DNA of 64,000 bases from Anabaena sphaerica FACHB-251 (lineage in GTDB: Bacteria; Cyanobacteriota; Cyanobacteriia; Cyanobacteriales; Nostocaceae), in assembly GCF_014696825.1 (NCBI RefSeq), contig NZ_JACJQU010000006.1, positions 24,542-88,541 on the forward strand. The letters run 5' to 3'. Below the pieces are notes generated by a model that saw only the letters and a program-made list of their open reading frames with translations, searched no databases and was not told the origin of the DNA. Positions 23,665 through 39,852 of the stretch are shown here, in pieces (the first letter of the stretch is position 1; each line of letters opens with the position of its first letter). The position numbers and the translations under genes are program-made.

Positions 23665-23942
23665 TTTCTTTTGCTGGTTTAATAGCTTTTGACTTCGCTA
23701 TGTTTGCAGTGAGCTATGTCAGCGATAAACTATGTTTGCAGCTAACACATTTATTTTTAGTCTAAATATAGTCTAATACCAAGCTCTCGTTCCCTGTCTG
23801 AGCCGGGGAATGCCTCAGTTAGAGACTCTGCCTCCGCTGACGACAGTCGAGGTAGAACCTCATCATTTGCATTCCCAGCCAGAGTCTGGGAACGAGAAAA
23901 TTAAGTTTCGCGCAAAGGCGCAGAGGAGTAAAGGCGCAAAGG

Positions 23943-25244
23943 ATGAAAGAACAGCTATTATGGGAATTAGAACAAGTAAATCTGCGTTTGAAGTCTGCAA
24001 AGACCAGAGTAACAATTCGAGAATCTAATGGATGTCTGCAATTACGGGCAACTTTACCCATTAAGCCAGGAGATGAGGATACAAGGGGAACTGGGAAAAA
24101 GCAATACAATCTCAGTTTGAATATTCCCGCAAATTTACCAGGATTGAAAACTGCGGAGGAGGAAGCTTATGAGTTAGGGAAGTTAATTGCTAGAAAAAGT
24201 TTTGTTTGGAATGATAAATATTTAGGAAATGAGGCAATTAAAAAGGATTTACGAACTATTGGTGAGTTATTGGTAAGGTTTGAGGAAGAATATTTTAAAA
24301 CCCATAAACGCACGACTAAAAGTGAACATAGTTTTTTTTATTATTTTTCTCGAATTAAGCGTTATACAAATGCTGATGATTTGGCAAATGGGGAAGTTTT
24401 AATTCAAGCGATTGAGAAAATAGATAAGGAATGGGCTAGATATAATGCTGTGAGGGCTATTTCTGTTTTTTGTCAACTTTTTAAAATTGATATTAATTTA
24501 ACTAGTTATTCTAAAGTTCCTGAAAGTAATTCTCGGAATGTTCCTACTGATAAGGAAATAGTTACTGGATTTTACAAGTTTGATGAATATCTAAATAATC
24601 GCGGTAAACAAGTTAATCAAGATGTGAAAGATAGTTGGCAACTTTGGCGATGGATTTATGGAATGTTAGCGGTTTTTGGTCTACGTCCCAGGGAACTTTT
24701 TGTTAATCCTCATATTGATTGGTGGTTGAGTAATGAAAATACAGATTTAACTTGGAAGGTTGATAAAGATTGTAAAACTGGTGAAAGGGAAGCTTTACCT
24801 TTATATAAGGAATGGATTGATGAATTTGATTTAAGGAATCCGAAGTATTTAGAAATGTTGGTAACAGCAATTAGTAAAAAAGACCAAAATAATCATGCAG
24901 AAATCACGGCTTTAATTCAAAGGGTGAGTTGGTGGTTTAGAAAAATTGGTTTAGATTTTAAACCCTATGATTTACGTCATGGTTGGGCAATTCGAGCGCA
25001 TATTTTGGGAGTTCCTATTAAGGCTGCGGCGGATAATTTGGGTCATAGTGTCCAAATTCATACGAAAACTTATCAACGTTGGTTTTCTTTAGATATGCGG
25101 AAGTTAGCAATAAATCAGGCTTTGAGTAAGCGGAATGAAGTGGATTTGATTAAGGATGAAAATACTGGGTTGAAAATGGAGAATGAACGGTTGAAGATTG
25201 AGGTAGAGAAGTTGAGGATGGAAATGGTTTATAAACGGAGTTAA
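23943..25244 (+). CDS. xisA: XisA-family site-specific tyrosine recombinase (nifD-element excisase)
   Basis: 433 aa, paralogous to the 40635..41990 ORF (LPIKPGD...TAEEEA.ELGKLIARK.FVWNDKYLG; WQLWRWIYGMLA.FGLRP; RHGWAIRAH.LG.PIKAAADNLGHSV). Sits about 280 bp inside the nifK-proximal border. Confidence 0.8.
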   Translation: MKEQLLWELEQVNLRLKSAKTRVTIRESNGCLQLRATLPIKPGDEDTRGTGKKQYNLSLNIPANLPGLKTAEEEAYELGKLIARKSFVWNDKYLGNEAIKKDLRTIGELLVRFEEEYFKTHKRTTKSEHSFFYYFSRIKRYTNADDLANGEVLIQAIEKIDKEWARYNAVRAISVFCQLFKIDINLTSYSKVPESNSRNVPTDKEIVTGFYKFDEYLNNRGKQVNQDVKDSWQLWRWIYGMLAVFGLRPRELFVNPHIDWWLSNENTDLTWKVDKDCKTGEREALPLYKEWIDEFDLRNPKYLEMLVTAISKKDQNNHAEITALIQRVSWWFRKIGLDFKPYDLRHGWAIRAHILGVPIKAAADNLGHSVQIHTKTYQRWFSLDMRKLAINQALSKRNEVDLIKDENTGLKMENERLKIEVEKLRMEMVYKRS

Positions 25245-25260
25245 GTAATGCACCATAACA

Positions 25261-25602
25261 CTATTTAAATGCTTCAATTTGATCCGAATAAACATTAATT
25301 AGCTTGTGATCAATAACTAACATTTCAATCTCTGGACAAACTCTAGCTAGAAATGAGTGAAATTCACGTTTTCGCATATTCCCAAAACGTAGATGCACTA
25401 TTTTAGGTGGAGAAGAATCAACCATCAAGCGATCTGAAAAATCAGCATCTTTAGTAACAATCACCAATTCTTTTTCCTTTGCATACTCCCAGATTTGGGT
25501 ATCACTTGGACTATTCCCTAAAATAGAAACATGAATGACGGGTAAAGATGGAGTAAATTGGACTTTAGTGGGAAGTTTTTCATCAAATAAAAACCCATTC
25601 AT
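25261..25602 (-). CDS. DUF5615 (PIN-like) protein, putative toxin of DUF433/DUF5615 pair
   Basis: Start chosen at MNGFLFDEK so that ATG overlaps stop of upstream DUF433 gene (ATGA-type coupling); ORF track extends to 25659. Confidence 0.55.
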   Translation of the reverse strand: MNGFLFDEKLPTKVQFTPSLPVIHVSILGNSPSDTQIWEYAKEKELVIVTKDADFSDRLMVDSSPPKIVHLRFGNMRKREFHSFLARVCPEIEMLVIDHKLINVYSDQIEAFK

Positions 25603-25823
25603 GCAATTTTTCTCACTTCGTAATGATTCCCCATCAATTTTGCCGCGAATTGGATGCAAGCATAAATATCTTCTCTTTCTAAAGATGGGTATTCTTCTAG
25701 AACTTCTTCGATAGAATCACCTGCACCTAAAAATTCTATAATTGTTTGTACAGAAATTCGAGTGTTTGTAATAACAGGTCTGCCATTGCAAATATCTGGA
25801 TGAATAGTTATTCGCTTTTCCAT
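25599..25823 (-). CDS. DUF433 protein, putative antitoxin
   Basis: 74 aa; ICNGRPVITNTRISVQTIIEFL..G.SIEEVLEEYP.L.REDIYA DUF433 signature. Confidence 0.65.
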   Translation of the reverse strand: MEKRITIHPDICNGRPVITNTRISVQTIIEFLGAGDSIEEVLEEYPSLEREDIYACIQFAAKLMGNHYEVRKIA

Positions 25824-25974
25824 AACGATTTTTCCTTTTTATAGACCTAGTGTTAAGTAGATAACAATAATATTATTTTACATCATTGTTAGCAAATTGT
25901 CATCATTTTTGAATAAAAGTTATTTTTTTCGGATTAAGTTTAGTTAGTGAACAAGAGAAGTTAAGTTGTATTAA

Positions 25975-26069
25975 TAAAGATGGAAATACAGGGTTGGAAA
26001 ATGGAGAATGAAAGGTTGAAGATTGAGGTAGAGAAGTTGAGGATGGAGATGGTTTATAAACGCAGTTAA
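25975..26069 (+). repeat. approx 95-bp duplicate of the xisA 3' end (approx 90% identical to 25150..25244)
   Basis: Direct alignment: ...GGTTGAAGATTGAGGTAGAGAAGTTGAGGATGGA.ATGGTTTATAAACG.AGTTAAG in both. Flanks the DUF433/DUF5615 cassette. Confidence 0.8.
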
Positions 26070-26141
26070 GTTTGGGTAATCAAGAATTTCATTTTTGTGT
26101 GATGTGGTATAATTAGTTTATCAACAATAATCAAAATCTTT

Positions 26142-26400
26142 ATGCAAGCTACTGATATTGGGACACTAATTATTAAATCATCAGACACTTTAGGGGGTCG
26201 TCCTCGGATTGCTGGTACTAGAGTTTCTGTGCAACGAATTACAGCTTGGTACAAAAGTCGAGATACTCCTTCTGGAAACATTTGTCTCCCCAGGTTTTGT
26301 AAATCTGGTATCTCTGGAGGACATTGAATAATGGGATGAGTCAAAGTTAGAATTTGACCTTCACTAAGACATCTCTCCCTGTCTACATGATAGAAAATTG
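26142..26400 (+). pseudogene. Degenerate second DUF433 gene (frameshift after about 50 codons) with decayed downstream partner
   Basis: GGRPRIAGTRVSVQRI is the DUF433 core. Alternative frame continues ...PGFVNLVSLEDIE*, indicating a frameshift. Confidence 0.5.
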
Positions 26401-26534
26401 GCATTTTTATCAATCTTTATCTAAATAATCTTATTAGTATAGCTTGCGTTGTTGCCTAGTACAATATACTATACTAACAAGACTTAGCTAAAATCTAGGA
26501 ATATAATCTACTTTGTGAAATAATATCTTTTGTT

Positions 26535-27053
26535 ATGAGTGATATCAAATCTGGTAGCATCGAATTTCATGATTACCCATCTTTAGAATCAGATGAAGAG
26601 TACAAATTTGAGGTTCTACATTCTGGTCAAGTAATTGGGATTGCTCACGTCAAATGTATGCAGGATCAACAGGGAAAGTTTTGGCATCTAGATAACTTGT
26701 TCGTTCAGATAAAACATCGTAATCATGGATATGGAACTAAATTGCTTAATCATCTTCGCCATTACCTTTGGAGCATGGATAGACTAAGAATTCGAGTTCA
26801 CCCGGCTATTGGACAACAAGCAATGGAGGCGTTAGTCGAGAAATTACAACACAATAAGGAAATATACACTGAGGAAGAACTAGACGCTATGGATAAAGAA
26901 CTGTATCTGGCAATGCAGCAACCTGATTTTTGGCAAAAGCAAGCAGAGATAAGCGAGACTCAAGATAGTAAAGAACTTGTTGAATGGTATCGTAAGCGCG
27001 AATTTACACATGATGACCCGGATGGAAAGCATCTATGGTGTTATTCTGAATAA
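26535..27053 (+). CDS. GNAT-family N-acetyltransferase
   Basis: 172 aa; V..HR..GYGTKLL..L acetyl-CoA-binding motif region. Confidence 0.5.
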   Translation: MSDIKSGSIEFHDYPSLESDEEYKFEVLHSGQVIGIAHVKCMQDQQGKFWHLDNLFVQIKHRNHGYGTKLLNHLRHYLWSMDRLRIRVHPAIGQQAMEALVEKLQHNKEIYTEEELDAMDKELYLAMQQPDFWQKQAEISETQDSKELVEWYRKREFTHDDPDGKHLWCYSE

Positions 27054-27157
27054 AATGTGATCGCATTTCTTCTATATGGGAGTGCGATCAGACTTTCCTA
27101 AATCCCAATACCAAAAAACTGCTTAAATAAAATAAGCTAACCGTTATATGTCAGGAT

Positions 27158-28291
27158 ATGCTAGAAAAAGTAATACTTCATAATTTCAAAAGTCATAAAT
27201 CTACAGAACTTAATTTCGATAGTTCTCGATTACATGGACTCGTAGGAAAAAACAGTGCTGGTAAAACAACTGTTCTACAAGCATTGCATAATCTAAGTAG
27301 GCTTGCTGCTTCACAATTTAAAAATATTTTTCAGTATGATAAATCACCTGAATTTCTCACAACAATGGGGAAAAAAAATATGTCTGTCACTGCTAGTGGT
27401 TTTTGGGGATCTACCAATCGGCAGAATTGGCAAGCTTCTTATAGTTGGAAGCAGCAAAATATTGATTATTGGCATCCAACAGCATCATGGAACATAGATA
27501 AAAAAGAATATAGTTTGGAAGGATGGAAAAAATCATTAAGTGAAGCTCCATATCCAATTCCGCAATCTTTGAAATATGCTGTTTACCTCAAATTAGTTGC
27601 AAGTAATCTTGCCAAAGCAGCTTACAGTGAAGAAATTACGCCAAGAGTTGAGTTTGATGGTTCGTTATTAGCACCAACTTTAGATTTTTTGCGTAATGAA
27701 GCTCCAGATAAATTTCAATTAATAGAAGAAAAATTGAGTCGGATTGTCCCAAATGTACGCAGAATTGGCATCAAGCGAGCAAAAGTTTCAGTCATTCGTA
27801 AACGTTTAATCGAAGTTGATGGTAAGTCTATTTCTTATGATGAAACTCAGGAAATGGCAGGTCAAGAAGTTATATTAGATATGAATACAGGTGAACGTAT
27901 TCCAGCCCATGCAATTAGCGAAGGAACAATGTTAACTTTAGGATTATTAACTGTATTAATGAATCCTAATCAACCTAATTTAGTTTTATTAGATGATGTA
28001 GAACAGGGACTTCATCCTAAAGCACAACGTGAGTTAATGACTGTTTTTAAAGAAATCATTGCTGAAAATCCCAACTTGCAAATTATTTTCTCTACTCATT
28101 CTCCTTATATTATTGATGAACTTGTTCCTTCTCAAGTCCATATATTAAATAACAGTAATTCAGGTTTCACAATTGCCAAACGTTTGGATGAACATCCTGA
28201 TGTAGAATGGGCAAAAGAAACATTAACAACTGGTGAATTTTGGGATGCTGAAGGTGAAGATTGGGTGGTAGAAGGAGAAGTCAGTGATTGA
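27158..28291 (+). CDS. ABC-type AAA ATPase (AAA_21/AAA_15-like; OLD/PARIS AriA-like)
   Basis: 377 aa; Walker A GKNSAGKTT at N-terminus, Walker B LVLLDDVEQGLHP and STHSP H-loop at C-terminus. Stop overlaps start of next gene. Confidence 0.75.
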   Translation: MLEKVILHNFKSHKSTELNFDSSRLHGLVGKNSAGKTTVLQALHNLSRLAASQFKNIFQYDKSPEFLTTMGKKNMSVTASGFWGSTNRQNWQASYSWKQQNIDYWHPTASWNIDKKEYSLEGWKKSLSEAPYPIPQSLKYAVYLKLVASNLAKAAYSEEITPRVEFDGSLLAPTLDFLRNEAPDKFQLIEEKLSRIVPNVRRIGIKRAKVSVIRKRLIEVDGKSISYDETQEMAGQEVILDMNTGERIPAHAISEGTMLTLGLLTVLMNPNQPNLVLLDDVEQGLHPKAQRELMTVFKEIIAENPNLQIIFSTHSPYIIDELVPSQVHILNNSNSGFTIAKRLDEHPDVEWAKETLTTGEFWDAEGEDWVVEGEVSD

Positions 28292-29060
28292 GTTTATTGT
28301 CATAGTTGAAAGTGGTGCAGATGCCAGAACAGCGACTAAATTAGCCGAGCGCGTTTTAAAGGAAAAATTCGATTGGTTAGATGATGATATTCTGCAACAT
28401 TGTTTTCAGTGGACTGGTTTAGAGGAAGGGACAGAATTTTCTTGCTGGAGAGACATTATAAAAATAATTGATGATGCAAAATCACAAATAAAATATAAAC
28501 CTTCCAGATTTTTAGGACATGATAGTAAGGGTGTACCCTTGAAAGCTGATGGAGCAGCATCTATCAAGATTCTTAATTTGGTAAGGTTTCTGCAAAAAAC
28601 TCGACAGATTAAAGCTGTTATATTTATCCGTGATTTAGATAATCAACCGGAACGTAAAGAAGGAATTGAACAAGCACGTTCAGAACATATTAATAAAACC
28701 TCGAAATTAGAAATTGTCATTGGTGCGGCTGATCCAAAACGTGAAGCATGGGTTTTAAATGGCTTTATTCCCTTTAATCAACAAGAGGAACAAATTCTAG
28801 AAGAAATCAAAAATAAATTGAGTTTTGATCCTTGCATAGAGTCTCACAGATTACGTGCTACTTCAGAGAAAGAACCTGAACGAATGAGAAATGTAAAAGT
28901 AGTAGTTGAACAGCTAACAGGAAACGATATGGAACGGGAAAAGCAGTGTTGGGAAGATACAGATTTAAAACATCTACGAGAAAGGGGAGTTGATACGGGT
29001 TTAACAGATTATATTCAAGAAGTTGAGGAACGATTAGCTGCAATTATTTTGTCTGATTAA
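28284..29060 (+). CDS. TOPRIM-like small partner protein (OLD C-terminal/AriB/DUF4276-like candidate nuclease)
   Basis: 258 aa; N-terminal beta-strand plus Glu (IVIVESG) and later DxD (AVIFIRDLDN), the catalytic layout of TOPRIM. 8-bp overlap with ATPase gene. Confidence 0.45.
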   Translation: MIEFIVIVESGADARTATKLAERVLKEKFDWLDDDILQHCFQWTGLEEGTEFSCWRDIIKIIDDAKSQIKYKPSRFLGHDSKGVPLKADGAASIKILNLVRFLQKTRQIKAVIFIRDLDNQPERKEGIEQARSEHINKTSKLEIVIGAADPKREAWVLNGFIPFNQQEEQILEEIKNKLSFDPCIESHRLRATSEKEPERMRNVKVVVEQLTGNDMEREKQCWEDTDLKHLRERGVDTGLTDYIQEVEERLAAIILSD

Positions 29061-29147: not shown

Positions 29148-29552
29148 TTAACCTTTATTCCCAGCCCAAAGAATAGCAGTATCTTGATACTCTTTAAACA
29201 TTGAATCCGCTGTCACCAGAATCATACTTTCCATCTGTGCTTGTGCAATGAGCATTCTGTCAAAAGGATCTCCATGATGCAAAGGTAAAGCCACCGTTCT
29301 GAGTGCATGGGAAGCTGTAATTTCCAAAGATTTCGCCCCCAATTTCATCATGCGGCTAGAAATGTAACTATCCAGTGGTTCTGGTAATGGTAACTTACCA
29401 ATTGCAACTTTTATCCCCATTTCCCACACACTAGCAACAGAAAACCATAGTTCATTGCTTTCATCAGCAATATGTGCGATCGCCTCTTCATGCAAACGCT
29501 CAGGTTCAGCAAACCACCATAAAAAACACTGTGTATCCAGTAAAAGCTTCAC
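29148..29552 (-). CDS. vapC: PIN-domain ribonuclease toxin VapC
   Basis: 134 aa; MKLLLDTQ... PIN acidic residues; 4-bp overlap with upstream antitoxin. Confidence 0.8.
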   Translation of the reverse strand: MKLLLDTQCFLWWFAEPERLHEEAIAHIADESNELWFSVASVWEMGIKVAIGKLPLPEPLDSYISSRMMKLGAKSLEITASHALRTVALPLHHGDPFDRMLIAQAQMESMILVTADSMFKEYQDTAILWAGNKG

Positions 29553-29794
29553 TCCTCATTCCCCTCAAACGCTGCTAAAATGTCCTCTGCTAAAGGTGCA
29601 TTAAAGTCTTCTGGAATTACAAATTTTCCTCGATCTTGTCCTAAACTATCCCGTCGTTGAGACGAGACACTAAACGGAACTAATTTAGCGATGGGAATAC
29701 CCCGGTTACAAATAATGATTTCTTCCCCATGTTCTACACGGGATAATAGACGTGAAAGATTCGTTTTAGCTTGATGGATATTTACGGTTTCCAC
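29549..29794 (-). CDS. Phd/YefM-type antitoxin
   Basis: 81 aa; METVNIHQAKTNLSRLL..V..GEEIIICNRG.P.AKLVP. Confidence 0.7.
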   Translation of the reverse strand: METVNIHQAKTNLSRLLSRVEHGEEIIICNRGIPIAKLVPFSVSSQRRDSLGQDRGKFVIPEDFNAPLAEDILAAFEGNEE

Positions 29795-30496: not shown

Positions 30497-30645
30497 CCCT
30501 GTGCTACATCTACACATTTGACAATATGCTACATTTAGAATGGGATAGTAAAAAAGTCACAAAGCTACAGTTTAGGTTCTATCTACCTAACTGGTGCGCC
30601 AAACCATAGTATGAGCGTATACCGCCGAGTGCTTTAAACTATATC

Positions 30646-30725
30646 GTTTGATTAGCTCAGTTGGTAGAGCAGTTGACTCTTAATTGATCAATGCGTCACA
30701 GGTTCGACTCCTGTATCAAACCCCA
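30646..30725 (+). tRNA. tRNA-like gene 1 (perfect acceptor and D/T arms, enlarged/aberrant anticodon region, CCA encoded)
   Basis: GTTTGAT-TA-GCTCAGTTGGTAGAGC ... ACAGGTTCGACTCCTGT-ATCAAAC-C-CCA. Anticodon arm cannot be folded canonically (about 4 extra nt). Confidence 0.45.
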
Positions 30726-30800
30726 GGAAGTTAGCTCAATTGGTAGAGCAGTTGACTATTAATCAACCTGTAGCAGGTTCGATTCCTGCACTTTCAACCA
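30725..30800 (+). tRNA. tRNA-like gene 2 (76 nt cloverleaf, anticodon loop CTATTAA, A1:A72 mismatch, CCA encoded)
   Basis: AGGAAGT-TA-GCTCAATTGGTAGAGC-A-GTTGA-CTATTAA-TCAAC-CTGTA-GCAGGTTCGATTCCTGC-ACTTTCA-A-CCA. Unusual anticodon AUU. Confidence 0.45.
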
Positions 30801-31198
30801 ACCCTGTCCGGGTTACAGGACACTACTTATGGGAAGTAGCAAGTGGCAAAGGAGAAATCCTGCGGTTCAACTCCGCAATTATCACCAACTCTGCGGTGCA
30901 AGTATTTTGCTTGTCTTCATTACTCGCAAGAGTAACGTTTGCAAGCAGCAGTTAATGAGTTCGCGCAACTGCATTCCTCCCTAACTTGAGTATATCCTTC
31001 AACTTGCCAATGGCAAAACAAAGTTTATTTGCCAAAAGCAAAATGAACGGTATATTTGATGGTTGTTCTTTAATTGAGTAGCTACGGAGCAGCTTAGTTA
31101 AAATTACATCTATCTTCATCCAGTTTTTGAGTAGCTTTTGCCCACCCAACGACTGTAACACTTACTTGCATTTGCAGAGTTTCTAAAAATTTTGTATT

Positions 31199-32803
31199 AT
31201 GGCATATTACAAAAAGCTAGAATCAATATCAAAATTAGTCACTAACTTACTAAAAAATATCCTCCAAAATACTATTATGTGGAAAAACTTTTACATTAAA
31301 CCTAACGAAATTGGCATTTTATATCACCGCAGCGACTTTAAGAAAGTTTTACAACCTGGTGAATATACTTATTTTGGTCGTCATTGGCTAGTTAAAACTT
31401 ATGACCTCAATGAAGCAGAAGCGGATATTGAAAACCTAGAATTATTGTTGCGAAATCATGGAACAGAACTAGAACAATATCTACTAATTGTTAAAACTAC
31501 ATTTAACGAAGCTGCTTTAGTCCGTTTGGGTCAGAATTGGATAAGTATTGCTCCTAATCAATTACGGGCTTTTTGGCGAGGTTTTATAGAAGTAGAATTC
31601 CATCTTTTCAACTTAGAAGAAAACTGGGAATTGCCTAATTCTTTTGTCCAGCAATTGCGATCATTTGCGTTAAATGGACTGAAGAAATTCCAAATCTTTG
31701 AGTATGAGATTGGTTTACTATATGTACAAAATAATTTTACCCGACCTCTAGAACCAGGAGAGTATGCCTTTTGGTCAATAGATAAGACAGTAGCGGTGCG
31801 GAGTATTAGCCGGATTGTCCCTAACCCCGATTTTCCTCTAGAAGATATACTAATTGAAAAACATCCTGATTTTGTTGCTGCTTACTGTGAAATTGTGGAA
31901 TTACTGCCTTCGCAAGTTGCAATTGTGCGCTATCGAGGTAAGGTAATTTCTATTTTACCACCCACAAGCCGCAAACTATTTTGGCAAGGTGTGGCAGTGG
32001 AAATTATTGATATTAGCACAGATGCAAAATTATCACCTGCATTAATTTCTGAATTGGTGGAAGGAACAGCAGAAGTAAAAACACTGAGTCGAAACTATTT
32101 ACATATTTGTCAAGTTCCTCCCCAACATATTGGACTATTATATATTAATCAGGAATTTCAAACACAATTACAACCAGGATTAAATGCTTGGTGGTCATTT
32201 GGACGTTCTTGGCAAACGGAAACTATTGATTTGCGATTGCAAAACATGGAAGTTTCCGGTCAAGAAATCCTCTCTAAAGACAAAGTACCTTTGCGGTTAA
32301 ATTTAACTGCTGGTTTTCGCATTCAAGACCCATTAAAAGCAAAAAATGGGTTATCAGATATTACTGGATTCTTGTACAAAGAGTTGCAATTTGCTTTGCG
32401 TGGTGCAGTGGGTGAACGGACTTTAGATGCTTTGTTAGAAGATAAAGGCGCAATTGATAGCAGTATCTCTGAATATATTCGTCAAAAAGCCGCAGACTAT
32501 GGAATTGAAGTTGATTCTGTAGGTGTGAAAGATATTATTTTACCTGGAGAAATTAAGGCAATTTTGAGTAAGGTTGTTGAAGCTGAAAAAGCTGCTCAAG
32601 CAAATGTTGTCAGACGTAGAGAAGAGACTGCTGCCACTCGGAGTATGTTAAATACTGCGAAGGTGATGGAAGATAATCCGGTGGCGTTGCGGTTGAAGGA
32701 ATTGGAAGTTTTAGAACGTATTGCGGAGAAGATTGATCGGATTCAGGTAAATGGTAGTTTGGATAGTATTTTGACAGATTTGATTCGCATGAATCCGCAG
32801 TGA
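31199..32803 (+). CDS. SPFH/Band-7 (flotillin/slipin-like) domain protein with triplicated N-terminal module
   Basis: 534 aa; three repeats of a PGEY.FW...W motif block, then C-terminal SPFH region (GVKDIILPGEIKAILSKVVEAEKAAQANVVRRREETAA...). Confidence 0.6.
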   Translation: MAYYKKLESISKLVTNLLKNILQNTIMWKNFYIKPNEIGILYHRSDFKKVLQPGEYTYFGRHWLVKTYDLNEAEADIENLELLLRNHGTELEQYLLIVKTTFNEAALVRLGQNWISIAPNQLRAFWRGFIEVEFHLFNLEENWELPNSFVQQLRSFALNGLKKFQIFEYEIGLLYVQNNFTRPLEPGEYAFWSIDKTVAVRSISRIVPNPDFPLEDILIEKHPDFVAAYCEIVELLPSQVAIVRYRGKVISILPPTSRKLFWQGVAVEIIDISTDAKLSPALISELVEGTAEVKTLSRNYLHICQVPPQHIGLLYINQEFQTQLQPGLNAWWSFGRSWQTETIDLRLQNMEVSGQEILSKDKVPLRLNLTAGFRIQDPLKAKNGLSDITGFLYKELQFALRGAVGERTLDALLEDKGAIDSSISEYIRQKAADYGIEVDSVGVKDIILPGEIKAILSKVVEAEKAAQANVVRRREETAATRSMLNTAKVMEDNPVALRLKELEVLERIAEKIDRIQVNGSLDSILTDLIRMNPQ

Positions 32804-32922: not shown

Positions 32923-33738
32923 TTGGAAAATATAGCTTTGGATATTACCACAGAATTAAGAAATACAGAAAATTCTTTAAGAGATCTATACACTTACATC
33001 CTCTCTAACAAATTTGGTGAGGAATGGCATTTAAAGTGTGGAGTTAGTAGTGACCGAATAGATAAATGGAAAGCTCGAAAAGATTTAGAACATAAAAATT
33101 TCGGTTATAGCGATCCACGATTGATTTATTACGCTGATTTTTATGATCTAAAAACAATTCTTAAACACAATTGGCAACACGACTTATCCAAAGTATTTGG
33201 CAAATTGAAGGAACTAGAGGTTTTATTAGATATCCTAGAGGAATTAAGAAACCCTGATGCTCATAGAAGAAACTTACTCCCATACCAAAAATATTTAGCT
33301 ATGGGTATTAGCGGTAAAATTAGAACAGAAATTACAGGATATTTTAGTAAAATGGAAACTGGCGAATCATATTATCCAAGAATTGAATGTGTACAAGATA
33401 GCCTTGGAAATTCATGGGCAATAGGTGAGCAAAATACCCTATTTACAAATGAAGTGCTTAGACCAGGCAATGAAATTCAGTTTAATGTATCTGCTACAGA
33501 TCCTCTTGGTGAAACAATAGAGTTTACTGTTATGCCTGTATCATCCCCATGGGAATTTGAATGGAAAGAAAATGGCGATTTTTCACTTGTAATAAAAAAA
33601 CAATACGTGGGAAAAATTTTCTGGATTTGTATAGCAGTGCGATCCAAAAGGGAGTTTCATGCAATGTCTGAAGTTGGCCTAGGTTCAGTAGATGATACCG
33701 TTAAATTTGGATATGAAGTTCTCCCTCCTAAAAGATAA
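32923..33738 (+). CDS. HEPN-domain protein (Swt1-like; Rx4H motif RNPDAH)
   Basis: 271 aa; LEELRNPDAHRR matches the HEPN R-x4-6-H catalytic motif; very AT-rich. Confidence 0.5.
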   Translation: MENIALDITTELRNTENSLRDLYTYILSNKFGEEWHLKCGVSSDRIDKWKARKDLEHKNFGYSDPRLIYYADFYDLKTILKHNWQHDLSKVFGKLKELEVLLDILEELRNPDAHRRNLLPYQKYLAMGISGKIRTEITGYFSKMETGESYYPRIECVQDSLGNSWAIGEQNTLFTNEVLRPGNEIQFNVSATDPLGETIEFTVMPVSSPWEFEWKENGDFSLVIKKQYVGKIFWICIAVRSKREFHAMSEVGLGSVDDTVKFGYEVLPPKR

Positions 33739-33746
33739 TACTAACA

Positions 33747-34499
33747 ATGCTAGAAGATTATTTTGTTAAATTAGTAGTTCTTTTCTGCTGGCTAATATTT
33801 CCTATTTTATGGTATTGTTATAGGATTGATTTTTTTCTAAATATTTCAATTTGGTGGAAGAAAAAAGATGAAAAAGATGTTGTTCTACCTGCCTGCATTT
33901 TTTTTATACTTCCTTTTGCAATTCTAATAACTTATCAGAACTTTTATGAACTCATAACAAATTTCCACAAAGATGATGTTACCAGCAAAGTATTGGAAAC
34001 TTCTTTCAAGCTAATTCCGATAGCAGCAATAGGAGCATATTTTGTGGATAAAATCAAGAAAAATGAAGAAATTCAACTATCAAGAGATATCTTATCTCAT
34101 GAGTTATTTCAAAACTATCTTGCTACTCGAAATACTATATTTCTCTTGAAGATGTCTAAATCACCAGGCGGAAATGTCTCAGGAAATCCAATCAAAGATT
34201 TCCAGACTTTATGGTCTAACAGAGCATATGATAATAGTCGAAATTCAATTATTAGGATGAAAGGAAATATCTATGGAAGCTTAAGTGAACTTTACCAAAG
34301 TGCTAGTTTGATTATCAACAAATATACTGGTGATGATAGTTGTATTTCTTATTCTTCTGCATTTGAGAATCAAGAATTTGTATTTCGACTAGACTTGTTA
34401 ATTAATGATATTTACAACAACTTGATTTTACTAGATAACAAGTCAGAAATTGGATTATTGACACGGCGAGAGGTAGAACAGATGAAAGTAGAAAAATAA
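33747..34499 (+). CDS. Membrane protein (2-4 N-terminal TM helices) of unknown function, adjacent to HEPN gene
   Basis: 250 aa, hydrophobic N-terminus, very low GC; 9-bp gap from HEPN gene. Confidence 0.4.
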   Translation: MLEDYFVKLVVLFCWLIFPILWYCYRIDFFLNISIWWKKKDEKDVVLPACIFFILPFAILITYQNFYELITNFHKDDVTSKVLETSFKLIPIAAIGAYFVDKIKKNEEIQLSRDILSHELFQNYLATRNTIFLLKMSKSPGGNVSGNPIKDFQTLWSNRAYDNSRNSIIRMKGNIYGSLSELYQSASLIINKYTGDDSCISYSSAFENQEFVFRLDLLINDIYNNLILLDNKSEIGLLTRREVEQMKVEK

Positions 34500-34597
34500 T
34501 GCAAAGTTTAAACATCAATCAAACCATAACCGATTGGTCATCAATATGGATATTTTTGGAAGTTGCTATAATCAAAACAAACCTGAAAAATCCTGAT

Positions 34598-35180
34598 ATG
34601 ATAGCCATTCCCCAACAACCGCAAAAAATGACCATTGAGGAATATCTTACATGGGAACTTGACCAGGATATTCGCTATGAATACATCAACGGCGAAGTTT
34701 TCGCCATCACTGGTGGTACAATTCCCCACAATGATATTGCTCTAAATCTTTACAGACCTCTATATTCTCATCTCCGTCCTAGAGGTTGTCGAGTTAATGT
34801 GTCAGAGGTGAAAGTACAAGTTACCCCTAAAAGCCCATACTTCTATCCTGATCTTATCGTTAGTTGTCACCCTGATGACCTCAACGCCCGCAAATTTATT
34901 CAAAATCCTAAATTAATCGTTGAAGTTCTTTCCCCTGGTACAAGTGGTAAAGATAGAGGTGAAAAATTCAGATATTATTTATTTAACAATGCCCAGTTTG
35001 CAAGAATACATCTTGATTGATTCTGAAAAAATATCTGTTGAACGTTACTGTCGGGGAGAAGGACGAATGTGGCTTTATTATCCTTACACTACTGGAGACA
35101 TCATCACTTTATCAAGTGTTGAATTTGAATTTCCGATTGAAATGCTTTATGATGGTGTTGGGTTGGAAACTGAAGAATAA
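34598..35180 (+). pseudogene. Uma2-family (DUF820) putative restriction-endonuclease-like gene with frameshift
   Basis: MTIEEYLTWELDQDIRYEYINGE...SPGTSGKDRGEKFRYY in one frame. Continues ...LQEYILIDSEKISVERYCRGEGRMWLYYPY...FEFPIEMLYDGV in another frame (shift near 34975-35000). Confidence 0.6.
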
Positions 35181-35827: not shown

Positions 35828-35982
35828 AATGCCGAGAAAACAACCTAAGCTTGAGTTTCTTCATCACAAGTGGAAATTGTTAGTTTGAAAAGTTGTGGAT
35901 TTTAGTCAACATTATGTTCAAGATTTTGGGTAAACTGGAAGCGACAAAACAACCCATTGCACAGATTAGTAATTTAATATTC

Positions 35983-36498
35983 ATGACAAATCCCACCGCA
36001 ACTCTGGAAACGTCTCTTGGTACTATTACTCTTGAGCTATTCACCGACGTTATGCCCATAACGGCTGGAAACTTCATCAAATTGGCTAAAAGTGGCTTTT
36101 ATGATGGTCTGCATTTCCACCGTGTGATTAAAAACTTCATGGTGCAGTTTGGTTGTCCTCACAGTAAAGATCCTAGCTCTCCTCGTGCAGGGACAGGTAA
36201 TGGTCCTGATGGGTGCATTCAAGATGAGCATCCCGCAGATGGGAAAATTTCCAATGAACCAGGAACTCTATCTATGGCTAATACGGGGGCCCCTAATAGT
36301 GGGAGTTGCCAGTTTTTCATCAACACTGTTCACAACTCCTATTTAGATTGGTTTACACCCGGTCCATCCAAGCATCCTGTTTTTGGTCGAGTTACTGAAG
36401 GTATGGATGTATTGAAAGCCATTGAAACCACTCCAACGGGACAAGGCGATCGCCCAAAAACTCCAGTTAAAATGATCAAAGTTACCATTCACGAATAA
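35983..36498 (+). CDS. Peptidyl-prolyl cis-trans isomerase, cyclophilin type
   Basis: Cyclophilin signatures ([40 protein letters not shown]); start set at MTNPTATLE. Confidence 0.85.
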
Positions 36499-36689
36499 AC
36501 TAAAGGATTGGTGCGGAGAAACCCTCCGCACACCGCTATCTTCAGGCAACATCCCCTCTTTCTCATTAAAAGATAAAATTGGGTTAATCAAACCCAACAC
36601 AATTTGATTTCAGATTTCATTAAATTGTGTATGGATCAATATTTAATTTCCTCAATATCTTCATGCTTTTGAAGTTGCTTCACCCCAGA

Positions 36690-36860
36690 TAGAACGCCAG
36701 TTAGCATTTCGAGATTACATGATTGCTCATTCTGAAAACGCACAGAAATACAGTGATCTCAAACGTGAACTTGCAAAAAAGTATCCTGATAATATTGAGA
36801 GCTACATGGATGGAAAAGACTGGTTGATTATAGATAGAAAAGCAGCAGAGTGGAGAAAAA
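36690..36860 (+). pseudogene. Fragment of GrpB-family (UPF0157) gene, C-terminal 50 codons only
   Basis: RDYMIAHSENAQKYSDLKRELAKKYPDNIESYMDGKDWLI matches GrpB C-termini; no upstream ORF. Confidence 0.45.
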
Positions 36861-37632
36861 TATGCTAGGAGCGATCGCAGGTGATATTATTGGCTCATTG
36901 TATGAAATTAATAATATTAAAACTAAGGATTTTCTTCTTTTAAACCCCGATAGTATTTTTACAGATGATACAGTTTTAACAGTAGCAGTAGCCGATAAAC
37001 TTCTAGATCATAGCGACTATGAAGAAATATTTAAATCCTATTATCATCGCTATTCAGCTAGAGGCTATGGCAAAAGTTTTCATCGGTGGGCTAAAGGTGA
37101 AATTGTCGGAGCTTATAATAGTTATGGCAACGGTTCAGCCATGAGAGTAAGTCCTGTTGGCTATGCTTTTGATAATTTAGAACAAGTATTAGCAGAAGCA
37201 AAAATTAGTGCAGAAATAACTCATAACCATCCTGAAGGCATCAAAGGAGCGCAAGCAGTAGCAGCAATTATTTTTTTAGCACGAACAGGTACAAGCCGAG
37301 AAGAAATTAAATCATATACTGAAACTAATTTTGGTTATGAGTTGAATCAAAGTTTAGATGAAATTCGCCCTACTTATAAGTTTGATGTTAGTTGTCAGGG
37401 AAGTGTACCCCAAGCAATTATCGCTTTTTTAGAATCAACAGATTTTGAAGATGCAATTAGAAATGCTATTTCCATTGGTGGTGATAGTGATACAATTTCT
37501 TGTATCACAGGAGGAATTGCCGAAGCCTTTTATGGAAGTGTGCCGACATTTATAGCAGAATATGCTATTTCTAAAATCACAAAACATCTTTATGGAACCA
37601 TAGAGAAATTTCAAAAAAAATACTGTAATTAA
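36850..37632 (+). CDS. ADP-ribosylglycohydrolase family protein (ARH/DraG fold)
   Basis: 260 aa; N-terminal GAIAGDIIGS, TDDT, C-terminal GGDSDT metal-binding motifs characteristic of the ADP-ribosylglycohydrolase family. Confidence 0.7.
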   Translation: MEKNMLGAIAGDIIGSLYEINNIKTKDFLLLNPDSIFTDDTVLTVAVADKLLDHSDYEEIFKSYYHRYSARGYGKSFHRWAKGEIVGAYNSYGNGSAMRVSPVGYAFDNLEQVLAEAKISAEITHNHPEGIKGAQAVAAIIFLARTGTSREEIKSYTETNFGYELNQSLDEIRPTYKFDVSCQGSVPQAIIAFLESTDFEDAIRNAISIGGDSDTISCITGGIAEAFYGSVPTFIAEYAISKITKHLYGTIEKFQKKYCN

Positions 37633-37636
37633 AGCA

Positions 37637-38002
37637 ATGCAAAAATGGTTTCGCTATTCCCTATTAGCAACTGCAATTATGAACTTGGCCGGAGCAGTCA
37701 TATTTGCACTACCGATTTATGGTAAGGGTGATGTCTTCGGGTTGCCGAATGCTCACCCACTGTATCTTTGGATTATATCTTCTTGGATTCTCATCTTTGG
37801 TGTAGCCTATTTTTGGTTGGCACTTACGGCAAAGCCAGAGCGTTTATACATTGCAGTAGTAGCAGCTTGTAAATTAGCGATCGCTTTTATTTTCTTTGCC
37901 TTTTGGATGACAGGTGATTTACCATTTATAACTGCATCTGCTGGAGGTGGAGATTTCTTTTTTGCAATCATCTTCATCTATTGGCTTTTTCAGAGGCGGT
38001 GA
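37637..38002 (+). CDS. Small membrane protein (121 aa, 3-4 TM helices)
   Basis: Hydrophobic ORF. Confidence 0.4.
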   Translation: MQKWFRYSLLATAIMNLAGAVIFALPIYGKGDVFGLPNAHPLYLWIISSWILIFGVAYFWLALTAKPERLYIAVVAACKLAIAFIFFAFWMTGDLPFITASAGGGDFFFAIIFIYWLFQRR

Positions 38003-38151
38003 ACTCTAGATTTTGTGGCGTTGCTGATTTTAGGGATGAAAATAATTTTGCATACGTTCAAGACCTTTGTAGAGACGTTCCATGGAACGTCTCTACCTCC
38101 AAAAATCATACCCTAATTCAGCAACGCCGATTTTGTTAGCTCCCTCTATAT

Positions 38152-38253
38152 TAGACATAGTAGTGAAAATTAAATGTGCGTGGTTTGAAATCCTTGTAGA
38201 GACGTTCCTCATGTAGGGATTCTCGGCTCTACAATCTTTACCGGAGATGTCTA
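38152..38253. mobile_element. MITE copy (diverged left TIR), TA-flanked, near nifD-element border; plus solo 28-bp palindrome GTAGAGACGTTCCATGGAACGTCTCTAC at 38060..38087
   Basis: Shares AAATGTGCGTGGTTTGAAA.CCTTGTAGAGACGTTCC and CCGGAGATGTC-TA end with copies at 11247 and 56851. Confidence 0.6.
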
Positions 38254-38489
38254 TTTAGTCTAAGAACCAACCAGATAAAAAAGTTTTTCTATTTAACATT
38301 TTTGATTTAAGCCAAATTTAAGCCAAATCTCAAAACTAGACTCAATCTGAGTTATACTCTATGCAGTATCAAACAAACATTGTTACTCACAAACATAATC
38401 AATTTAATTTAGGCTAAAAATTAACTTCTCTTAATTCCACCACCAAAAAACCTGAAGTTAACGCACCTTTCAACCAACATTACTAGGTT

Positions 38490-39852
38490 CGGAGTAATCC
38501 CAAGAGTGCATTTGACGGAAAGGTAAGCCCATCTTTTGGAAGACATACTTCTCTTTCACACCAGAAGCAACTAAGTCTGGCTTCAATGCTTTGATGAATT
38601 CTTCAAATTCGTAAGCGGTAACGTCGTCATAAACGATAGTTCCGTTTTCGATGTAGTTGGTAGTACGTTTATAGTCGTCATTATGAGCGAACTCATAACC
38701 AGTACCAATCATCTTCATTCCCAAATCTTGGAACGCGGGAACAACGTGACGGGGACGTAGACCACCAACCATCATTGCTACAGTCTTACCTTCCAAGCGG
38801 GGGCGATACTTAGAAACGATCGCATCCATTGTGGGTTGGTACTTAGCAATTACTTTTTCAGCATTTGCTTGGATTTTTTCGTCAAACTTGGAAGCAATTT
38901 CGCGTAAAGATGCAGCAATCTTGGTAGGACCGAAGAAATTATACTCAAGCCAGGGTATACCATAAGCTTCTTCCATGTGACGGCTGATGTAGTTCATCGA
39001 GCGGTAACAGTGGATGAGGTTCATCTTCACGTTGGGGGTCATCAACATTTCGTTGATTGTACCGTCACCAGACCATTGAGCAACAACGCGCAAACCGATT
39101 TCTTCTAACAGAATACGGCTGGCCCAAGCATCACCACCGATGTTGTAGTCACCAATGATGGCTACATCATAAGGAGTTCCTTCAAACTTCAATGTACCGT
39201 CTTTCTTAGCCTTGTCTGCTCTGGGGAATACCCAGTCACGAATCATGTCGTTAGCAATGTGGTGTCCTAAAGACTGAGACACACCACGGAAACCTTCACA
39301 ACGGACAGGAACAACAGGCTTACCAATTGCTTTAGCAGACTTCTTAGCTACTGCTTCAATGTCATCCCCAATTAGACCAATGGGACATTCAGATTGAATA
39401 GAAACCCCACGATTTAAGGGGAATAATACGTCTAATTCTTCAATTAACTTGGTCAGTTTCTTGTCTCCACCGAACACGATGTCGCGTTCTTGGAAGTCGG
39501 AGGTGAAGTGCATTGTACCGAAGGTATCGACACCAGTTACACCTAAGTAGTAGTTACGACGACCAGACCAAGACCAGTAACCGCAACCTACAGGACCGTG
39601 GCTGATGTGGATCATGTCCTTAATAGGACCCCAAACCACACCTTTAGAACCTGCGTAAGCACAACCACGAGCGGTCATTACACCAGGAAGGGATTTGATG
39701 TTAGACTTAACACCGCAATCAGCCTTACCTTCTTCGTATACGTTTAAGTGCTTCTCGCGCTTTTTAGCAGCTTTTTCGGGGTAAGCTTTCAGAACTTCTT
39801 TAACTAGTTCTTTTCTTTGTTCAACAATCTTCTTGTCATCGGTCGAAGCCAT
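38490..39852 (-). CDS. nifD: nifD 5' segment (nitrogenase MoFe protein alpha subunit, first about 454 codons)
   Basis: [41 protein letters not shown]...HSWDYS, then frame runs into the element (EPSNVG*). Confidence 0.9.

Follow-up and report, generated by a model that had tools for sequence, protein, structure and literature searches.

The nifD gene in the window, by which we mean the whole stretch of 64,000 nucleotides analysed here, is interrupted by a nifD element, as an earlier note on this DNA had observed. The presence of the element is confirmed; the interpretation placed upon it is, as a whole, partly supported. It is not new but an unremarkable representative of a class known for a long time, the nifD excision elements. 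More precisely, it is the “nifD-1355/1357” variant of the Anabaena/Dolichospermum lineage, an integrated and degenerate mobile element. Its anatomy can be read directly (Table 1), nifD can be restored in silico and orthologous elements occupy the same site. Taken as one whole, an XisA-type nifD element combined with a mosaic cargo and a slipin-linked RNA module is very probably the best explanation.

Table 1. Features of the nifD element and its borders (positions in the window)
Feature	Position	Strand	Remarks
nifK	21766..23391	-	after nifD 3' portion
nifD 3' portion	23520..23657	-	ends ...ASV*; then nifK
nifK-proximal TACTCCG core	23658..23664	-	11-mer context GAAATACTCCG
nifD element	23665..38496		14,832 bp; GC 35.8% vs 39.2% in remaining window
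Region upstream of xisA	23698..23747	+	two CTATGTTTGCAG direct repeats (23698, 23730); TGT-N9-ACA at 23733
xisA, tyrosine recombinase, 433 aa	23943..25244	+	Phage_integrase and PHROG integrase matches
DUF5615 (PIN-like) + DUF433 pair	25261..25823	-	Pfam
Decayed DUF433 remnant	26142..26327	+	profile positions 1-34 of 56; Pfam
GNAT acetyltransferase	26535..27053	+	Pfam; not in the earlier note
ABC-type AAA_21/AAA_15 ATPase	27158..28291	+	resembles HEC-01A, AriA, AbiLi (Pfam, PADLOC)
ATPase partner, 258 aa	28284..29060	+	8-nt overlap with ATPase gene; large unannotated family
PIN toxin + Phd/YefM antitoxin	29148..29794	-	toxin 29148-29552, antitoxin 29549-29794; Pfam
Conserved non-coding locus, ~650 nt	30527..31183	+	adjoins slipin gene
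Extended -10-like TGCTACATT	30527-35	+	first part of RNA locus
RNA locus 5' region	~105 nt after -10-like box	+	two covarying hairpins
tRNA-like unit 1	30646-30725	+	11-nt anticodon loop
tRNA-like unit 2	30725-30800	+	anticodon ATT
Hairpin GTCC..GGAC	between unit 2 and T-arm-like piece	+	RNA locus
T-arm-like GCGGTTCAACTCCGC	30862-76	+	RNA locus
Structured domain, ~290 nt	closing helix 30888-30904 / 31160-31181	+	RNA locus
TrcR-operator-like TGTATTAT	31193..31200	+	slipin promoter position; 7/8 vs operator TGTAGTAT
Slipin/SPFH (Band_7) protein	31199..32803	+	Pfam
Swt1-like HEPN protein	32923..33738	+	weak HEPN_Swt1 Pfam match; RNPDAH motif; PDC-M34B-like (PADLOC)
250-aa protein next to HEPN gene	33747..34499	+	looks membrane-bound (hydrophobic N-terminal stretches by eye)
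Uma2 pseudogene	34499..35180	+	two frames; 4-bp insertion near 34975 vs intact orthologues
Alr1449-family protein, 192 aa	35249..35827	+	~31/80 loci
Cyclophilin-type PPIase	35893..36498	+	Pfam
ADP-ribosylglycohydrolase	36850..37632	+	Pfam
121-aa hydrophobic protein, unknown family	37637..38002	+	ORF
Short palindromic repeat units, GTAGAGACGTTCC-type	38068..38240		repeat search
nifD-5'-proximal TACTCCG core	38490..38496	-	context GGATTACTCCG, the classical 11-mer
nifD 5' portion	38497..39852	-	with 23520..23664 gives 500-aa NifD

On the minus strand, nifD breaks off after HSWDYS, and the insert spans 14,832 bp between exact copies of TACTCCG. The ORF of the 5' portion (38470..39852) terminates in ...HSWDYS|EPSNVG*, its frame is picked up at the second TACTCCG copy, and joining the two halves in silico yields an uninterrupted NifD. 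The earlier note had correctly recognised the break at the PCC 7120 site, the exact 7-bp core and the length of about 14.8 kb, and the low GC content of the element matches the trend of published elements. By itself the TACTCCG 7-mer is not significant: the window contains 4 copies with 2.7 expected, and this count of 4 is attained in 28 of 100 shuffles. It acquires significance because it is placed exactly at the ORF break, beside an XisA gene and with the same junction in 80 related loci.

The nifD-5'-side copy lies within the full 11-mer GGATTACTCCG, which is also the repeat of PCC 7120. Only the nifK-side copy departs from it (GAAATACTCCG, 9 of 11 positions in agreement), and it was therefore wrong to state that both flanks differ from the PCC 7120 sequence. 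An identical 11-mer is given for A. variabilis and S. hofmanni UTEX 2349 (Hilton et al. 2016, Table B). Among related loci, the nifD-5' side reads CGGAGTAATCC in all ~21 whose fetched sequence covered that junction; in the junction survey, members of the Anabaena clade have CGGAGTA|TT on the nifK side, and Nostoc, Calothrix and Scytonema retain the 11-mer there in full. The 7-bp state is seen in about 25 of the 80 loci, with the junction CGGAGTA|TTT on the plus strand. Nor is the short core a peculiarity of this genome, being the published state of the Anabaena/Dolichospermum lineage: TACTCCG is found at nifD position 1357 in four Anabaena strains (Hilton et al. 2016, Table B), and position-1357 elements measure 18.4 kb in A. 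circinalis 131C, 15.19 kb in A. cylindrica 7122, 20.7 kb in Anabaena sp. 90 and 58 kb in PCC 7108 (Hilton et al. 2016). This core is common to 25 of 32 interrupted nifD genes.

The xisA gene lies at the nifK end, with its start 278 bp inside the element edge, and runs in the direction opposite to nifD. Its product has the motifs LRHGWAIR and TYQRW and shares 79-95% identity with its positional counterpart, with nifK upstream, in 80 genomes. The direct repeats and the TGT-N9-ACA motif that precede it are candidate regulatory or arm sites. Its 3' end is duplicated (25123-25246 and 25948-26071, 81% identical), with the DUF5615/DUF433 cassette lying between the two copies.

The nifD element of Anabaena/Nostoc sp. 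PCC 7120, 11 kb in length and with XisA, was reportedly described by Golden et al. in 1985. With the element of PCC 7120 and A. variabilis ATCC 29413 the present one shares an identical nifD site (…WDYS|G), an oppositely oriented XisA at the nifK-proximal end and an Alr1449-family cargo gene. However, it is longer (14.8 kb vs 11 kb), divergence of the nifK-side copy has left it with an exact repeat of 7 bp instead of 11, and its cargo has been extended by TA pairs, an ATPase pair, HEPN and a slipin module; the slipin gene of PCC 7120, alr0740, lies outside its nifD element. No cyp110 P450 homologue occurs among the cargo annotations of the present element. The 3'-nifD element of A. cylindrica PCC 7122 / ATCC 29414 has the same 7-bp repeat, position 1357 and a comparable size, and its ATPase (Anacy_2207), band 7 (Anacy_2203) and hypothetical (Anacy_2200) groups are also represented here. 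It nevertheless belongs to another strain or species, the present XisA being ~92-95% identical to that of the nearest genomes in our collection. These three gene groups are common to such elements (Hilton et al. 2016, Table C); our ATPase and our Alr1449-family gene are probably the “ATPase” of nifD-1355 elements and the “hypothetical protein” group with alr1449 in that table. The TACTCCG element of A. cylindrica (15,190 bp) is 70.8% excised in heterocysts vs 0.4-0.5% in vegetative cells.

Part of the cargo lies outside defence. The two tRNA-like genes of the earlier note were recovered by ARAGORN, with Rfam scores of 56 and 61 bits, and are not defence cargo; both form part of a conserved non-coding locus beside the slipin gene. 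This locus matches no Rfam family except tRNA, and the pair is part of a larger conserved RNA, which appears to be undescribed. Its cloverleaf is kept while the anticodon is variable, compensatory base changes are retained in the locus, and the slipin-linked RNA locus is present across cyanobacterial orders. Slipin itself is ~80% identical across these orders and ~79% identical to the PCC 7120-like copy P0346; to judge from homologues, translation probably begins at M27 (31277), for a protein of 508 aa. The PCC 7120 homologue alr0740 is a member of the translational-stress regulon of TrcR, whose published operator is TGTAGTAT (PMC10272220) and which includes the trn tRNA array, rtcB and alr0739-alr0740. 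The present module resembles this regulon in its slipin, its operator-like sequence at the promoter position and its linked tRNA-type genes. It differs in being located within a developmentally excised element, and the passages on PCC 7120 considered here do not speak of any tRNA-like or structured RNA preceding alr0739/alr0740. The SPFH protein, listed in the earlier note among the cargo, is a conserved slipin and not a defence gene, and in this lineage the RNA-slipin module happens to lie within the nifD element.

The annotation proposed for the cargo is for the most part correct. Pfam recovers the DUF433/DUF5615 pair, the second, decayed copy and the VapBC-type PIN and Phd/YefM pair that had been proposed, as well as the cyclophilin and the ADP-ribosylglycohydrolase; the latter was rejected as a DraG equivalog (47 bits vs a cut-off of 337). 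The same DUF433 remnant follows xisA in five relatives (L002, L009, L014, L017 and L019). For the supposed ABC-ATPase/TOPRIM pair, the ATPase is identified by Pfam and matches AriA/HEC-01A/AbiLi-type models with E values of 1e-20 to 1e-32. Its partner has no matching model in PADLOC, Pfam, NCBIfam or PHROG and is probably RloB/TOPRIM-like, judging from acidic residues (E9, D117 and E154 are invariant in the family, as is W156, and D119 is nearly so) and from weak RloB/Toprim matches in distant family members. A translationally coupled AAA_21/AAA_15 ATPase and small acidic-motif partner are also found in PARIS (AriA/AriB), AbiL (AbiLi/AbiLii) and the PADLOC candidate HEC-01; the likeness extends to the hypervariable internal segment of the ATPase (residues ~41-160), which is of the kind found in immune sensors. 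The HEPN protein likewise stands on its Swt1 match and RNPDAH motif, and its gene is patchily distributed across phyla, but the proposed membrane partner is conserved solely in one close relative, L146, which additionally carries GmrSD_N and another HEPN gene. In the sequence covered, the HEPN pair was confined to the present element and L146, and the glycohydrolase to the present element. The Uma2 gene is frameshifted, as described, with Pfam matches in two frames. The sequences taken for MITEs are indeed repeated (TGTAGAGACGTTCC...GGAACGTCTCTAC, 9 matches in the window vs 0.2 expected), their nature being that of short palindromic repeat units. The Alr1449-family gene is the most widely shared cargo gene of nifD elements; in L146 a 192-aa gene at the matching position is labelled PF27270.

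What this cargo does can be read in several ways. TA-like pairs, possibly together with the ATPase-nuclease pair, could stabilise a selfish element, such that vegetative cells which excise it dilute the antitoxin and become inhibited. We regard this as possible rather than probable. Two intact TA-like pairs are present, related elements repeatedly carry such modules (PIN/Phd in 4-5 loci, DUF433/DUF5615 in 6), and excision in vegetative cells has been measured at the low level of ~0.5% in A. cylindrica. TA-mediated post-segregational killing is moreover established on genomic islands, HipAB on a Shewanella island being an example (PMC8978831). However, the toxins here are putative, and in most related nifD elements, of each of which 10 kb was examined, no recognisable TA pair was found, although these elements are maintained.

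Somewhat more doubtful is a host-beneficial defence island, in which the TA, ATPase/TOPRIM and HEPN genes would guard vegetative cells and akinetes from phage and be discarded only in terminally differentiated heterocysts. About half of the cargo ORFs do fall into TA-like or defence-candidate families, and PADLOC returns the AriA/HEC-01A-like ATPase, a lone PDC-M34B-like HEPN and the pseudogenised PDC-S03/Uma2 gene, but no complete known defence system in the element. The AbiLi-like ATPase (E ~1e-30) with its hypervariable segment, the E…DxD…E signature of its partner with the RloB and Toprim matches of its distant kin, the patchy phylogenetic spread of the HEPN gene and the additional genes of L146 argue for such a role, as does a full-length type IIG restriction-modification enzyme in the neighbouring nifH element. 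Against it, one of the candidates, Uma2, has become a pseudogene, and a DUF433 gene survives as a remnant; the SPFH, cyclophilin and Alr1449 genes are outside defence, and nothing supports a defence role for GNAT or the glycohydrolase either. Growth was unaffected by the presence or absence of a nifD element in published work, as cited in Hilton et al. (2016). Since no complete system is recognised and several genes are unrelated to defence, the idea of a defence island serving vegetative cells and akinetes is plausible, though not proven. The same cargo genes fit stabilisation of the element or passive accretion equally well, and Nostocales genomes are very rich in TA and Uma2 genes.

That the cargo is neutral, the element being a tolerated landing pad where mobile genes gather and decay to the benefit of neither host nor element, would account for the Uma2 frameshift, the DUF433 remnant, the palindromic units and the highly variable content and size of related elements (3.4 to >11.6 kb), but is improbable, since the strong conservation of the ATPase partner (72-96%), Alr1449 (82-98%) and slipin (83-97%) across elements and the compensatory changes in the RNA locus indicate that at least some of the cargo is under purifying selection.

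In the preferred reading, that of an XisA-type element with mosaic cargo and a slipin-linked RNA module, XisA would, at a late stage of heterocyst differentiation, recombine the two TACTCCG-containing sites, freeing a 14.8-kb circle and leaving nifD intact again. The cargo is a recombining mosaic with no fixed gene set, built on a semi-conserved core (the ATPase and its 258-aa partner, the Alr1449-family gene, the slipin module and cyclophilin), to which selfish or immune-type modules have been added: two TA-like pairs, a horizontally acquired Swt1-HEPN and a now-dead Uma2. In vegetative cells these modules may act, probably both as stabilisers and as opportunistic anti-phage genes. As stabilisers, they would penalise vegetative cells that lose the non-replicating circle, and such addiction, if true, would explain how the element persists without benefit to its host.

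The nifD gene is interrupted at nucleotide ~1353-1357 (…HSWDYS/GPYHGY…). Its 5' part ends in …HSWDYS and runs on into the element sequence EPSNVG-stop, while the frame is picked up again on the other side of the insert, where nifK follows. Exact copies of TACTCCG lie 14,832 bp apart, both precisely at the ORF break; the 7-mer alone is not significant, as the window has four of them where 2.7 are expected. In silico, removal of one copy and the intervening DNA yields an uninterrupted 500-aa NifD, the junction then reading …GATTACTCCGGTCC…. A split of nifD after HSWDYS by an element of about 14.8 kb with a TACTCCG core, as claimed in the earlier note, is thus borne out. The accompanying statement that both flanks depart from the classical 11-mer is not: the nifD-side copy is this very 11-mer, GGATTACTCCG, and only the nifK-side copy, GAAATACTCCG, deviates, so that one flank differs and not both.

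Insertion site, TACTCCG repeats at both ends, place and orientation of xisA and the in-silico restoration of the nifD frame by precise excision together identify a XisA-type nifD element of the variant nifD-1355/1357. XisA, which matches the integrase family and contains the motifs RHGWAIR and TYQRW, is 79-95% identical to the product of the equally placed gene in 80 genomes, each representing a species, from Nostocales, Stigonematales-type strains and a few MAGs, its nearest relatives reaching 94-95%. The nifD-5' side of the junction reads CGGAGTAATCC, which is coding sequence, in all of the ~21 loci with that junction inside the fetched sequence. On the nifK side, CGGAGTA is followed by TT[TC] in ~25 loci of the Anabaena, Dolichospermum, Sphaerospermopsis and Cylindrospermum group, and the full 11-mer is found in Nostoc, Calothrix and Scytonema. 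Surveyed loci with both ends within reach have elements of 3.4-11.6 kb. The GC content of the present element is 35.8% versus 39.2% in the remaining window, low GC being also a property of published elements.

Some smaller sequence features accompany the element. Between its edge and xisA, two CTATGTTTGCAG direct repeats lie 32 bp apart together with a TGT-N9-ACA site; these may be regulatory or recombinase arm-binding sites. Most loci also conserve TGGTTTAATAG immediately within the junction. A short palindromic repeat unit (TGTAGAGACGTTCC / GGAACGTCTCTAC) has nine matches versus 0.2 expected, some in the element and others elsewhere in the window.

Much of this has precedents. Hilton, Meeks and Zehr (2016, PMC4874684) list the TACTCCG direct repeat at nifD position 1357 in four strains, with elements of 18.4 kb (A. 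circinalis AWQC131C), 15.19 kb (A. cylindrica PCC 7122), 20.7 kb (Anabaena sp. 90) and 58 kb (Anabaena sp. PCC 7108); in the same table, A. variabilis and S. hofmanni UTEX 2349 have GGATTACTCCG at position 1353. Their Table C names an “ATPase”, a “band 7 protein” and a “hypothetical protein”, including alr1449, as genes common to nifD-1355 elements. In A. cylindrica, the 15,190-bp TACTCCG element is precisely removed from 70.8% of heterocyst genomes versus 0.4-0.5% of vegetative ones, and the TACTCCG core is common to 25 of 32 interrupted nifD genes (preprint 10.1101/629832). The literature thus already contains the 7-bp core, the size class and some of the cargo, as well as a demonstration that such an element is excised. 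The earlier note correctly describes a known kind of element, to which it adds a modest and unproven functional gloss; as such, the element is one more catalogued case and leaves our understanding of these elements unchanged.

The neighbouring nifH is also split, by an 8,275-bp element between CCGTGAAG repeats, whose in-silico excision gives a 296-aa NifH. This is the known “nifH-429” variant.

Features of the nifD and nifH elements, in window coordinates (loci in other genomes in their own coordinates)
Feature	Position	Remarks
nifD 3' part	23664 to 23520	frame resumes at 23664, stops at 23520
TACTCCG copies	23658-23664; 38490-38496
CTATGTTTGCAG repeats, TGT-N9-ACA site	23698-23747
xisA	23943..25244	433-aa ORF; start 278 bp inside nifK-proximal end; opposite to nifD
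xisA 3'-end copies	25123-25246; 25948-26071	124-nt direct repeat, 81% identical
DUF5615/DUF433 pair	25261-25823	between the two xisA 3'-end copies
Decayed DUF433	26142-26327
GNAT acetyltransferase		nifD-element cargo
AAA_21/AAA_15 ATPase	27158-28291	top PADLOC models HEC-01A 1e-32, AriA 1e-29, AbiLi 3e-20
258-aa ATPase partner	28284-29060	8-nt overlap with ATPase gene
PIN + Phd/YefM pair	overlap 29549-29552	genes overlap by 4 nt
132-aa protein		no family match in Pfam, PADLOC, NCBIfam, PHROG
RNA locus	~30527-31183 (+)	conserved, non-coding
tRNA-like unit 1	30646-30725	Lys(CTT), 11-nt loop
tRNA-like unit 2	30725-30800	Asn(ATT)
Long-range closing helix	30888-30904 with 31160-31181	16 bp
TGTATTAT	31193-31200	TrcR-operator-like
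Band_7 (slipin) protein	31199..32803 (+)	534 aa as called; alongside tRNA-like pair
Swt1-type HEPN (weak)		PDC-M34B 4e-10; RNPDAH motif; 250-aa hydrophobic protein next
Uma2 (PDC-S03)		broken by 4-bp insertion relative to intact orthologues
Alr1449-family protein		192 aa; counterpart in L146, a related locus, labelled PF27270
Cyclophilin		nifD-element cargo
ADP-ribosylglycohydrolase		PHROG 6572 at 3e-57
121-aa hydrophobic protein		nifD-element cargo
nifD 5' part	38470..39852 (-)
Palindromic repeat copies	11288-11356; 38068-38097; 38195-38240; 56870-56900
CCGTGAAG repeats of nifH element	40453-60; 48728-35
XisA-like recombinase	40635-41990	nifH element
575-aa protein	42051-43778 (-)	nifH element; no family match
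Type IIG restriction-modification enzyme	45312-48422 (-)	nifH element; full-length, 1,036 aa; PADLOC 7e-248
RNA locus in other genomes	L143:3285-3930; L144:3120-3710; L145:2730-3330	also 15 Nostocales or metagenome loci

Scans with Pfam, PADLOC, NCBIfam and PHROG recover most of the cargo that had been named before: a DUF433/DUF5615 pair and a second, decayed DUF433, a VapBC-like type II toxin-antitoxin module in which a PIN toxin overlaps a Phd/YefM-type antitoxin, a frameshifted Uma2 gene, an ADP-ribosylglycohydrolase and a cyclophilin. Judged from gene content, this cargo is a mosaic. Within 10 kb of xisA in the 80 loci, the Alr1449 gene occurs ~31 times, the ATPase pair ~20, the slipin block and Uma2 ~10 each, DUF433/DUF5615 six, cyclophilin five and PIN/Phd four to five times, and neither the HEPN gene nor the glycohydrolase is present in any of the 80 over this range. 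The 3' end of xisA is duplicated and brackets the DUF5615/DUF433 cassette, an arrangement also present in two of the retrieved xisA loci (L003 and L006); it suggests insertion of the cassette at the stop codon of xisA. The glycohydrolase was considered as a DraG-like regulator of NifH and rejected (47 bits versus an equivalog cut-off of 337 for TIGR02662; absent from related elements in the range examined). A HEPN protein with a membrane partner had also been proposed. Both genes exist, but the two do not make up a conserved system. Members of the HEPN family are spread over different phyla (Microbulbifer 66%, Desulfobulbus 60%, archaea 49%); a single close cyanobacterial relative has the partner beside the HEPN gene, and it is absent in Microbulbifer and Desulfobulbus. 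The closely related locus L146 (JGI 3300043555, contig Ga0480305_000026, 47761-60387) has the same order of Band_7, HEPN, 249-aa protein, intact Uma2, Alr1449, cyclophilin and DUF433. L146 has GmrSD_N, a HEPN_MAE_28990 protein and a ParE toxin in addition; this neighbourhood therefore accumulates further defence and toxin-antitoxin genes in other strains.

The ATPase and its 258-aa partner had been read as an ABC-ATPase plus TOPRIM pair. Of the two PARIS components, an AriA-type ABC ATPase is present (AriA models at 1e-29 and 3e-26, HEC-01A scoring higher), while AriB, a DUF4435 TOPRIM protein, is not recognized, the partner having no match in PADLOC, Pfam or the other libraries scanned (NCBIfam, PHROG). 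The partner family comprises 1,084 cluster representatives at E ≤ 1e-3, with E9, D117, E154 and W156 invariant and D13 and D119 nearly so. In AbiL, the ATPase AbiLi goes with an RloB-like partner, AbiLii. Among 133 diverse members of the family, four match Pfam RloB (best 4e-5) and one Toprim (0.006), and the window protein matches neither; its high-confidence AF2 model (pLDDT 96.6) matches TOPRIM structures no better than generic Rossmann-like folds. The ATPase half of the claim thus stands and a TOPRIM partner is plausible but unproven. The ATPase had been described as exclusive to such elements (Hilton 2016). This is not upheld for the pair, since the partner has homologues in Coleofasciculus, Kamptonema and Microcoleus, all of them genera that form no heterocysts. 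ATPase residues ~41-160 are hypervariable, 22-57% identical to the closest relatives versus 87-100% elsewhere in the protein, and the window allele is here closer to Nostoc-type alleles. This suggests allelic exchange within the gene, a pattern typical of immune sensors evolving by exchange.

To what degree, then, does the element deserve to be called a defence island of vegetative cells and akinetes, if this is taken to mean at least one complete known or validated system? The PADLOC check that the earlier note had called for finds no complete known system in it. The matches are single components (the HEC-01A/AriA-like ATPase, PDC-M34B and the pseudogene PDC-S03) whose partners match nothing. 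By eye, immune-type and selfish modules are clearly over-represented in this single 64-kb window, but two defence candidates are decayed and several cargo genes are not defence genes. The reading is thus only partly supported. The same genes also fit a stabilisation of the element by post-segregational killing. In PCC 7120, the excised circle does not replicate. Because of this, and because excision occurs at a low level in vegetative cells (10.1101/629832), the stabilisation idea is attractive. Since both developmental excision elements of the window, that of nifD and that of nifH with its type IIG restriction-modification enzyme, carry immune-type or selfish modules, the question of why such apparently useless elements persist becomes testable.

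The most interesting content of the element is a side product of this analysis, a candidate new structured RNA encoded just upstream of the slipin gene. The SPFH protein and two tRNA-like genes announced in the earlier note are indeed found (Band_7; ARAGORN and Rfam), the latter as tandem units with Rfam tRNA scores of 56 and 61 bits and an encoded CCA end in both. Each folds into a cloverleaf with conserved tertiary positions and conserved acceptor, D and T arms. What they lack is a canonical anticodon loop (7 nt, U33, R37) and an anticodon kept among orthologues. The loop of unit 1 has 11 nt and unit 2 has the anticodon ATT (A34). Between loci the anticodon differs almost everywhere, the two units using CAT, TAT, TTT, CTC, CTT (with a 4-nt insert), TTA, GTT, ATT, CAA (with a long variable arm), GTA and TAA. 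A non-canonical loop, UGUAUCS (G33, C37), is conserved on covarying stems in unit 2 of both Chroococcidiopsis PCC 7203 and Gloeothece PCC 7424. In the alignments from which the structures were predicted, 98.2% of cells are paired, with compensatory changes at seven pairs, versus 33-42% when the 3' partners are slid. Because the cloverleaf is maintained while the anticodon varies and the unit 2 loop of these two strains is non-canonical, the units are, on comparative grounds, structurally selected tRNA-like domains and not ordinary decoding tRNAs.

The conserved flanks of the pair are non-coding; small ORFs in the spacer (30740-31161) were discarded as genes since their frames break between loci. 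The 5' region, ~105 nt from an extended -10-like TGCTA[CA]ATT (candidate promoter TGCTACATT), contains two covarying hairpins. On the 3' side follow a hairpin, a T-arm-like element and a multi-helix domain of ~290 nt, which a long-range helix closes. For this stretch RNAalifold gives 80 pairs, 20 of them with compensatory change, and 95.8% of cells paired versus 34-41% when slid, again scored on the alignments used for prediction. The ~290-nt domain is retained in Chroococcidiopsis, Gloeothece and PCC 7120-like Anabaena, one peripheral hairpin being deleted in the first two. The locus matches no Rfam 15 family other than tRNA, and no description of it was found in the literature searched. The tRNA-like pair and the slipin gene recur as a block in nine further loci among the 80, in six metagenome contigs and in three genomes that are more distant. 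A phage origin found no favour: viral contigs matched the D-arm motif only in ordinary tRNA-Asn genes and the junction motif nowhere, the 54 matches to the 15-mer CTCYCTAACTTGAGT are due to chance and lack surrounding homology, and in phage and plasmid collections nothing came up beyond generic tRNA-Asn similarity and similarity to the slipin C terminus. In Chroococcidiopsis thermalis PCC 7203 (L143; CP003597, 385543-395129), which does not belong to Nostocales, a reverse transcriptase (RVT_1) and a ParE toxin are neighbours of the module. There is thus a hint that it may itself be mobile.

The slipin gene provides a link to translational stress. In most loci examined, TGTAGTAT or a one-mismatch variant lies 12-18 nt past the closing helix; its window counterpart overlaps the ATG chosen by the ORF caller for the Band_7 gene. 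Homologues have 508 aa and the true start is therefore probably M27 (31277). According to the paper on the repressor TrcR (PMC10272220), TGTAGTAT is the operator of TrcR and overlaps -10 boxes. The homologous PCC 7120 operon of the TrcR translational-stress regulon, alr0739-alr0740, encodes a YdeI-like protein and the slipin; its genes are 71-fold and 42-fold up in ΔtrcR, and translation inhibitors induce them along with rtcB and the cryptic trn tRNA array. Between Nostocales and Chroococcidiopsis, Gloeothece and Oscillatoria, the slipin keeps 78-82% identity, a conservation exceeding that of NifK across the same loci. From Nostocales to Chroococcidiopsis and Gloeothece, the RNA locus directly precedes the TrcR-operator-like promoter. 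SPFH protein and tRNA-like genes are hence best viewed not as defence cargo but as a stress-related module of several cyanobacterial orders that is lodged here in the nifD element.

The ~650 nt of the RNA locus may give rise to a single large RNA with the two tRNA-like units as domains. Given that, in PCC 7120, the slipin operon responds to translational stress jointly with rtcB and the cryptic tRNA array, we propose that this RNA could be a tRNA-mimicking component of that response, with a role as a scaffold in processing or as a sensor or decoy for enzymes that act on tRNA, a proposal for and against which the scales are at present level. Riding on the nifD element, it would here be cut out of the heterocyst chromosome. 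As a candidate for a new, large bacterial RNA with a link to translational-stress biology, the locus would, if real, join tRNA mimicry to an SPFH protein and to the cyanobacterial stress response that involves cryptic tRNAs and RtcB.
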